NCBI RefSeq assembly: GCF_013167455.1
Contig: NZ_CP038328.1
Reading direction: 5' to 3' (one strand)
DNA length: 64,000 nucleotides
Origin: Escherichia coli O157:H7
GTDB taxonomy: Bacteria; Pseudomonadota; Gammaproteobacteria; Enterobacterales; Enterobacteriaceae
Below, piece after piece: positions 45,004 through 45,520 of this stretch. The translations under genes were made by a program, and so were the position numbers. Below the pieces are notes generated by a model. It ran no database searches. It was not told the origin of the DNA and saw only the letters and a list, made by a program, of their open reading frames with translations. Positions within the stretch are counted from its first letter, which is position 1; each line of letters begins with the position of its first letter.

Positions 45004-45252
45004 TTAGTGAACAAACCACTCGTCAGCAGACTTCCAGGTATCTTTCAGAGTCTCCTGAACAAAAGTTTTAGCTGAATCTTTATCGGCGGTGCGCGTAACA
45101 GAAAGGCCATCGTTGCTGGTGGCTTTTACGATCACCTCTACATCGTCATAACGTTTACTGATGCGTCGGGTTAATTCTTCCTTTAACGCATCCACAGCAC
45201 CGTTTGGCATTTTAGTCATTTTTTCTTTGGCTATGCAGATCTCAATACGCAT
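45004..45252 (-). CDS. DinI-family protein
   Basis: 82-aa [11 protein letters not shown]...[13 protein letters not shown]...[15 protein letters not shown], parallel to E. coli DinI (MRIEVTIAK...ETWESADDWFV). Confidence 0.7.
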
Positions 45253-45520
45253 AAAAGTCCCTCTATACTGTGTTTGTATACAGTATTATTTTTAACTGTA
45301 CAAATAAACAGTATCAAGGTGAGTGAGATGAAAAAAACGGGGGGGTTGTTACCCTTAGTTACAAATTGAAAAACCCCAGTCGGTGATAACTGGGGTTTTT
45401 TAGAAGTGCACGTGCATTTCACGTGTATATTTTTGTCTTTTTTCAGTCCGACTACTGTCTGGCTTGTGTCCGTAAGTGGCTGTATTTATTGCTACTGTCC
45501 GGTTGTAGTCCTTCTTAAAG

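Follow-up and report, generated by a model that had tools for sequence, protein, structure and literature searches.

The stretch 45004-45520, which comprises a dinI-like gene and the spacer between it and ssrA, is very probably best explained, as a whole, as the ssrA-side junction (attR) of Sp17b, a degraded lambda-like prophage of Escherichia coli O157:H7 (positions are those of the window, i.e. the whole 64,000-nt stretch of contig NZ_CP038328.1 analyzed here). The locus was already known to be the attR end of Sp17, a known degraded lambda-like prophage; here we document its anatomy, its homologies and its junctions, together with the absence of an integrase and of an attachment-site repeat. 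Both absences have an ordinary explanation because dinI is the normal last gene of a prophage that has been largely deleted. The first-pass annotation had taken dinI for the first gene of the island: it is instead the last gene of the prophage, at a native attR end, as in CP-1639, PhiR12_1 and NIID080884.

A sequence search showed bases 41000-46600 to be 100% identical to more than 300 E. coli O157:H7-type genomes, one of which (RefSeq record NZ_CP066753.1) served as the annotation guide. The ssrA gene is complete (Rfam RF00023 score of 292.8 bits, model positions 1-374 of 374 covered); since it lies on the minus strand with smpB upstream, the island runs toward lower coordinates. A DinI-like gene does stand next to the ssrA 3' end, as initially described: the nearest open reading frame downstream of ssrA is that of the 82-residue protein, RefSeq annotates nothing between the two genes, and an Rfam scan of 40000-48000 returned only the tmRNA and an IS3-family frameshift pseudoknot. 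The coordinates of the features are collected in Table 1. Note that elsewhere in the window, at 15344-15419, ARAGORN reports a tRNA-Met (anticodon CAT) where RefSeq has a tRNA-Ile; the K-12 counterpart is ileY, tRNA-Ile(CAU).

Table 1. Features of the O157-specific island and of its junction with ssrA (window coordinates)
Feature	Position	Strand	Evidence or remark
O157-specific segment relative to K-12 (Sp17), 23,229 bp	22292-45520		K-12 comparison
Two tyrosine-recombinase ORFs, apparently intact	23020-24231, 24221-25546	+	PF00589, NCBIfam, PHROG; 403 and 441 aa
'Sp17a' fragment: two tyrosine-recombinase genes and a 543-aa gene	23020-27174	+	PF00589, NCBIfam/PHROG integrase
Lambda-like late-region remnant	31208-41229	+	RefSeq; BLAST matches to CP-1639 and to the NIID080884 prophage
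Type III effector cargo: espW, nleG-family gene (DUF1076), espM2	41942-44502		RefSeq
Tail-fibre-assembly fragment (pseudogene), convergent with dinI	44736-44888	+	RefSeq
Rho-independent terminator of dinI	44890-44937	-	Hairpin 44901-44937 followed by UUUUUCUUUUU (folding)
DinI-like protein gene, 82 aa	45004-45252	-	PF06183, phrog_189, RefSeq WP_001217542.1 'DinI-like family protein'
Proximal LexA-box motif TACTGTGTTTGTATACAGTA	45266-45285		Between the -10 hexamer and the GAGGGA ribosome-binding site
Sigma-70-like dinI promoter: -35 TTGATA, 18-nt spacer, -10 AAAAAT	45288-45317	-	Sequence scan
Distal LexA-box motif AACTGTACAAATAAACAGTA	45294-45313		CTGT-N8-ACAG match
Rho-independent terminator, phage-supplied, downstream of ssrA and upstream of the dinI promoter	45369-45400	-	Folding
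Inverted repeat GTGCACGTGCATTTCACGTGTAT with CACGTG, phage arm of attR	45406-45428		About 90 nt past the ssrA 3' end
attR core region, last 27 nt of ssrA	45521-45547		16-nt core GCGGGAGTTGAACCCG at 45532-45547
ssrA (tmRNA), complete, tag peptide ANDENYALAA	45521-45883	-	ARAGORN and Rfam RF00023

The limits of the island are sharp: the sequence matches K-12 down to exactly 45521, and again from 22291 downward, within ypjA. The comparison with the boundaries of CP4-57 that had been proposed in the first-pass annotation showed that O157 has lost 751 nt from the end of ypjA as well as the att remnant psaA (CCGCCAGCCCACCA), both present in K-12. The left part of the island holds a DUF6387 fragment, an AlpA-like gene, the two recombinase genes, three more open reading frames, a BamE-domain open reading frame and a truncated IS30; the middle consists of a Q/lysis fragment, a truncated IS66 cut by IS629, and C-terminal fragments of tail-fibre genes; the right part comprises the effector genes nleG, espW and espM2, the tail-fibre-assembly fragment and dinI. 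The late-region remnant contains genes for an HNH endonuclease, NinG, a phosphatase, the antiterminator Q, a holin and a truncated lysozyme in addition to the tail-fibre fragments, and is interrupted by the truncated IS66 and by IS629/IS1203. The Sp17 genes ECs3485-3487 are the effectors espM2, nleG8-2 and espW (PMC2323221). Fragments of the tail fibre, the tail-fibre-assembly gene, dinI and attR thus follow one another in the order of a lambda-like late region, with the effector cargo inserted, and over 44757-45318 the sequence is collinear with the end of phage mEp460 that bears the tail fibre and dinI. Sp17 has been described as severely degraded and as consisting of two elements in tandem, Sp17a and Sp17b (Asadulghani et al. 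2009, PMC2669165). The initial description of a rearranged island therefore holds insofar as the island is a decayed, IS-riddled composite of fragments and deletions, but the position of dinI beside ssrA is not a sign of rearrangement.

Three further features of the island deserve mention. A long (GCCAGA)n hexamer repeat at 29499-29690 specifies a run of Pro-Glu within a hypothetical open reading frame of 432 aa; its alignments to other O157 genomes are split into two pieces of differing span, which suggests that the copy number differs between strains. A (TATTTC)n tandem repeat at 31024-31095 separates the truncated IS30 from the first lambda-like gene. Finally, a lipoprotein-like open reading frame with a BamE domain (PF04355, 27.9 bits) lies on the minus strand at 29854-30249; we considered whether it could be a duplicate of the ssrA neighborhood marking an old junction and rejected the idea, its product being only 24% identical to that of host bamE (47530-47871).

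The attachment core occupies the very end of ssrA. The crossover presumably falls within this core, an exact placement that draws on two relatives only, and the DNA from the crossover point toward lower coordinates is phage-derived. The PhiR12_1 record carries the 16-nt core at either end, and in NIID080884 a 25-nt repeat of the ssrA 3' end lies past the integrase gene. The 25-bp att site in ssrA that has been published for phiNP overlaps the 16-nt core (PMC6456863). phiNP itself is an unrelated myovirus of Citrobacter rodentium that also integrates into the 25-bp ssrA 3' end; its ORF1 encodes a DinI-like protein (PMC6456863).

A second ssrA 3' end is absent from the window: ssrA alone was matched by 35-mer and 27-mer probes, for which up to 3 mismatches were allowed, and by the 16-nt core, for which up to 2 were. 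A 14-mer probe gave two near-matches, at 9319 and 11850, which we judged to be due to chance because they lie on the opposite strand and in backbone that aligns with K-12. Likewise, a direct-repeat scan of 20000-46000 returned no repeat touching 45521-45560, only simple hexamer repeats and chance pairs. The initial statement that no attachment-site repeat is obvious is thus borne out, and the search for partial copies of the ssrA end suggested along with it yielded none besides ssrA itself.

The significance of this absence becomes apparent when the O157 junction is compared with its relatives. A phage-database search identified the same dinI-spacer-ssrA junction in CP-1639, where the order is J, lom, tail fibre, dinI, ssrA: over 45253-45560, i.e. 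the spacer (45253-45520) plus the junction, O157 is 97% identical to CP-1639 and about 79% identical to PhiR12_1. PhiR12_1 (PV340549) is a complete phage, with its integrase gene at the left end and dinI at the right end. The near-complete prophage of NIID080884 reads ssrA, dinI, effectors, tail, head, terminase, lysis, Q, replication, repressor, early genes, integrase (391 aa) and a DUF4760 gene, after which come the 25-nt copy of the ssrA 3' end and the integrase gene of a second, tandem element; its integrase gene and the 25-nt repeat lie some 55-57 kb from ssrA. The lambdoid ssrA integrases of NIID080884 and PhiR12_1 (391-392 aa) are 94.6% identical. Since dinI natively abuts ssrA in these intact relatives, the lack of an adjacent integrase gene is not evidence of rearrangement, and we ascribe the absence of both integrase and repeat in O157 to the deletion of the far end of the prophage. 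With neither its cognate integrase nor its attL repeat, the O157 element is a remnant, not a complete ssrA-integrating member of the group.

The tandem second element is a recurrent feature behind the lambda-like prophage (L007 8703-10121 in NIID080884; L002 2738-7547 in CP-1639). It opens, right after the displaced ssrA 3' fragment, with an integrase gene of its own, whose product is 48% identical to IntA of CP4-57. The occurrence of such elements in the relatives indicates that ssrA is a site where elements stack.

The dinI end is not confined to phages that target ssrA. The cassette alone (from about 44757, at the longest, to 45318) is present in many lambda-like phages with other integration sites, with dinI as the final gene ahead of att in mEp460 (tail fibre, dinI, integrase), cdtI (cdtABC, dinI, integrase), YYZ-2008 (inserted at yehV, with dinI followed by an annotated insertion repeat) and PhiR49_2.

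Integrase genes were sought in the window by tblastn. Neither the lambdoid ssrA integrases of NIID080884 and PhiR12_1 nor IntA of CP4-57 and the integrase of the tandem second element gave any significant match; no trace of a lambdoid ssrA integrase or of IntA is left in the O157 window, and the gene immediately downstream of ssrA is dinI. These results bear on the account put forward initially, according to which a former integrase-first island similar to CP4-57 would have lost its integrase and att repeat in an ancient rearrangement that also brought a DinI paralogue to ssrA. Islands at tmRNA genes were then said normally to start with an integrase: this layout is real at the K-12 site (ssrA, intA ... 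psaA), the ssrA-intA junction being found in 685 of 5426 complete E. coli genomes, but the dinI-type junction, which is native to phages, is found in 480 of them, so the two are similarly common. The O157 island is, it is true, heavily rearranged. However, its ssrA junction is collinear with those of a complete phage and of a near-complete prophage, both having dinI as the native neighbor of ssrA, the spacer is nearly that of CP-1639, and the IntA homologue that such an island would have carried was not found in the window. We therefore consider a rearranged integrase-first island most improbable.

The statement that the island has no integrase stands for the vicinity of ssrA; it does not stand for the island as a whole, at whose far end from ssrA lie two tyrosine-recombinase genes that RefSeq lists as non-pseudo. 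Together with the gene of a 543-aa protein without family match, they form a co-directional trio within 22292-27174, ahead of which stand the DUF6387 fragment and the AlpA-like gene; the trio has weak NCBIfam matches to the gamma-mobile-trio recombinase GmtY. It could be argued that these recombinases are the island's own integrases, and that 22292-45520 is a single element whose integrase is distal and had been overlooked. The open reading frames are indeed apparently intact and match PF00589, and Asadulghani et al. (2009) scored Sp17 as 'Integration +' (PMC2669165), yet they observed no circularization, replication or packaging, and a circular form of Sp17 was not detected (PMC2669165). In addition, the two proteins are unrelated to the ssrA-specific lambdoid integrase, the module has no flanking ssrA repeat, and a truncated IS30 separates it from the phage part. 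Moreover, the same module, with its DUF6387 and AlpA-like neighbors, recurs at the distal end of a tRNA-Pro island of E. coli EC052, and is therefore a fragment of another element. We thus rejected the recombinase pair as the missing integrase, and a single element with a distal integrase has very little to recommend it.

The product of the gene adjoining ssrA is clearly a member of the DinI family. Its score with the Pfam profile DinI PF06183 is 67.7 bits (cut-off 24.2, E=1e-18), profile positions 1-63 of 63 being covered; it also matches phrog_189 (E=2e-30). Residues 1-81 align with residues 1-79 of E. coli DinI (PDB 1GHH; 7YWA) with E=2.9e-12, the end-to-end identity to 1GHH being 45% by BLASTP. 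By contrast, its score against the NCBIfam DinI equivalog NF007893 (69.9 bits) falls under the cut-off of 111, and the protein is therefore a paralogue ('DinI-like') and not host DinI. As such, it may differ from host DinI in activity. Phage copies of dinI show dN/dS values of 0.03-0.29, i.e. the family is under purifying selection, although the homologue in NIID080884 carries an internal stop and dinI is thus dispensable in at least one lineage.

The gene forms a self-contained cassette with its own promoter, two LexA-type operators, ribosome-binding site and terminator. On the minus strand, the order is ssrA 3' end, CACGTG repeat, terminator, promoter with LexA boxes, ribosome-binding site, dinI and second terminator. 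Both LexA-box motifs lie at most 45 bp upstream of the dinI start codon; the distal one fills most of the promoter spacer and overlaps the -35 hexamer by 2 bases, so that LexA-type operators, as recognized by their motif, overlap the dinI promoter. When the 64-kb window is searched for the 20-nt consensus TACTGTATATATATACAGTA with up to 3 mismatches, the proximal box is the sole match (chance expectation 0). The shorter motif CTGT-N8-ACAG has 4 matches in the window, against 0.58 expected, and two of these are the dinI boxes. Another, at 49710-49725, stands just upstream of recN (48020-49681, minus strand); since recN is a known SOS gene, its upstream motif served as an internal control.

Alignment of the upstream regions of eight phages showed that homology sets in precisely at the -35 hexamer, irrespective of where the phage integrates. 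Both LexA boxes and the promoter are conserved in the eight phages, the CTG and ACAG positions of the distal box being invariant in all of them (8/8), and farther upstream the sequences cluster according to integration site. Neither of the two terminators flanking dinI was picked up by the consensus terminator scanner; both were confirmed by folding. The one on the ssrA side consists of a 13-pair hairpin followed by UUUUU (-18.5 kcal/mol, z-score -5.6) and is kept in the other phages of the ssrA group, with some sequence differences in PhiR12_1 and NIID080884. The inverted repeat between this terminator and ssrA is conserved in the ssrA-integrating phages (O157, CP-1639, PhiR12_1 and NIID080884). 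Indeed, the motif CACGTGCATTT(T/C)ACGTG is present in the dinI-side arm of all ssrA-integrating phages, and also in the integrase-side arm of PhiR12_1 (L003 ~74-95). The repeat may be an arm-type site for the integrase or for an accessory recombination protein.

Given its own promoter and LexA operators, the cassette should be silent in a lysogen and switched on after DNA damage: LexA would repress it in the lysogen, and damage would induce it independently of the phage repressor. By homology, its product would act like host DinI, binding to RecA filaments and thereby modulating the SOS response and co-protease activity. The suggestion made in the first-pass annotation that a DinI paralogue could modulate RecA and the SOS response is thus plausible, resting on membership of the DinI family, on the two LexA-box motifs of the promoter and on the purifying selection acting on the family; we conclude that the protein probably modulates RecA during the SOS response. 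It has to be set against this that in Gifsy phages non-polar deletion of the dinI homologues caused no measurable change in induction (PMC3121763).

A different role can be envisaged, in which the cassette is a LexA-controlled induction switch, like the dinI-gfoA-irsA operon of the Gifsy phages or a fusion similar to Tum of phage 186, and not a RecA modulator. The Gifsy prophages carry LexA-controlled dinI homologues with terminators ahead (PMC3121763), an arrangement reproduced here by LexA boxes behind a terminator. Furthermore, phrog_189 is a 151-position profile of which the O157 protein spans only positions 71-149; the profile might include Tum-like fusions. The part that is matched, however, is the C-terminal (DinI) part alone, and the protein has no fused antirepressor portion. 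We also looked for an antirepressor gene downstream of dinI and found none: a terminator directly follows the dinI stop codon, and the only minus-strand open reading frame beyond is antisense to the tail-fibre-assembly fragment and not credible. Finally, dinI is monocistronic in CP-1639, mEp460, cdtI and YYZ-2008. An antirepressor role of the O157 protein is therefore unlikely, and the chances that the cassette is an induction switch are slim.

It is also possible, albeit doubtful, that dinI is at present a neutral relic without function in O157, kept only because the O157 clone is young. The O157 copies are 100% identical among the matches listed and so carry no information on selection, the internal-stop allele of NIID080884 exists, and these genomes contain near-identical dinI copies at other positions, 2-3 places per record. 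Against this, the open reading frame, promoter, operators and terminator of dinI are all intact when most neighboring phage genes are fragments, and the family is constrained as described above. At the other extreme, the intact cassette may, together with its near-identical copies, have been co-opted by O157 as a source of extra SOS-induced DinI, an idea that we regard as rather far-fetched. If it were true, the extra DinI would damp or time the RecA co-protease, setting a threshold for Stx-phage induction and toxin release. The role of phage-borne, LexA-controlled DinI copies in Stx-phage hosts is not a new question.

Taken as the attR end of a degraded prophage, the locus very probably arose as follows. 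Phages of this group recombine within the last ~25 nt of ssrA, replacing the 3' end of the gene and adding a terminator behind it; their late end (tail fibre, tail-fibre assembly, dinI) then abuts the intact ssrA, and the integrase gene and the displaced ssrA 3' fragment come to lie at the far end of the prophage. In O157, deletion and IS activity removed about three quarters of the prophage, including integrase and attL, and with them went the end of ypjA and psaA, the older repeat of K-12 type, the order of these deletions being a conjecture from the sequence. What remains is dinI, the effector genes and part of the lysis region, joined to a piece of an unrelated, recombinase-bearing element.

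This has a bearing on annotation: islands at tRNA and tmRNA genes need not begin with an integrase, and in lambda-like phages that integrate into ssrA, the gene beside the intact ssrA is the last phage gene, with the integrase gene ~55 kb away. It also means that a phage provides the 3' end and the terminator of an RNA gene that belongs to an essential pathway.

Among known systems, the closest is CP-1639 (AJ304858; Creuzburg et al. 2005), a cryptic Stx1 prophage of E. coli O111:H- in which dinI is annotated beside ssrA. Like the O157 element, it is lambda-like, has the order tail fibre-dinI-attR, is without an integrase of its own and contains an IS629 insertion; unlike it, CP-1639 retains most structural and early genes as well as stx1, whereas O157 has kept only Q/lysis and tail-fibre fragments and the effectors. 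PhiR12_1 and NIID080884 share with O157 a right end made of dinI with two LexA boxes, a terminator, the CACGTG repeat and the ssrA core, but still possess a complete complement of phage genes, with the integrase and the att repeat at the far end. Sp17 (Sp17a and Sp17b) of O157:H7 Sakai, called CP-933Y in EDL933, is the same locus as that of the window, and no difference is expected between them. CP4-57 of K-12, a P4-like element, uses the same ssrA site and also supplies an ssrA 3' end; it differs in being integrase-first, in having a 14-nt repeat (psaA) at its far end, and in sharing no sequence with the O157 element between ssrA and ypjA.

As for the gene itself, E. coli DinI (1GHH; 7YWA) and the O157 copy have in common the fold family, a C-terminal ...TW.SAD.WFV helix and a LexA-box promoter; in the alignment, the O157 protein has more lysines in the C-terminal helix, and its gene is phage-borne and has two operators. 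Host dinI has one LexA operator. The dinI-antirepressor-irsA operon of Gifsy-1/2/3 (Lemire et al. 2011) and Tum of phage 186 likewise represent phage-borne dinI homologues behind a terminator and a LexA box, but in O157 no antirepressor or irsA gene follows, and the cassette stands at the attR end instead of after the replication genes.
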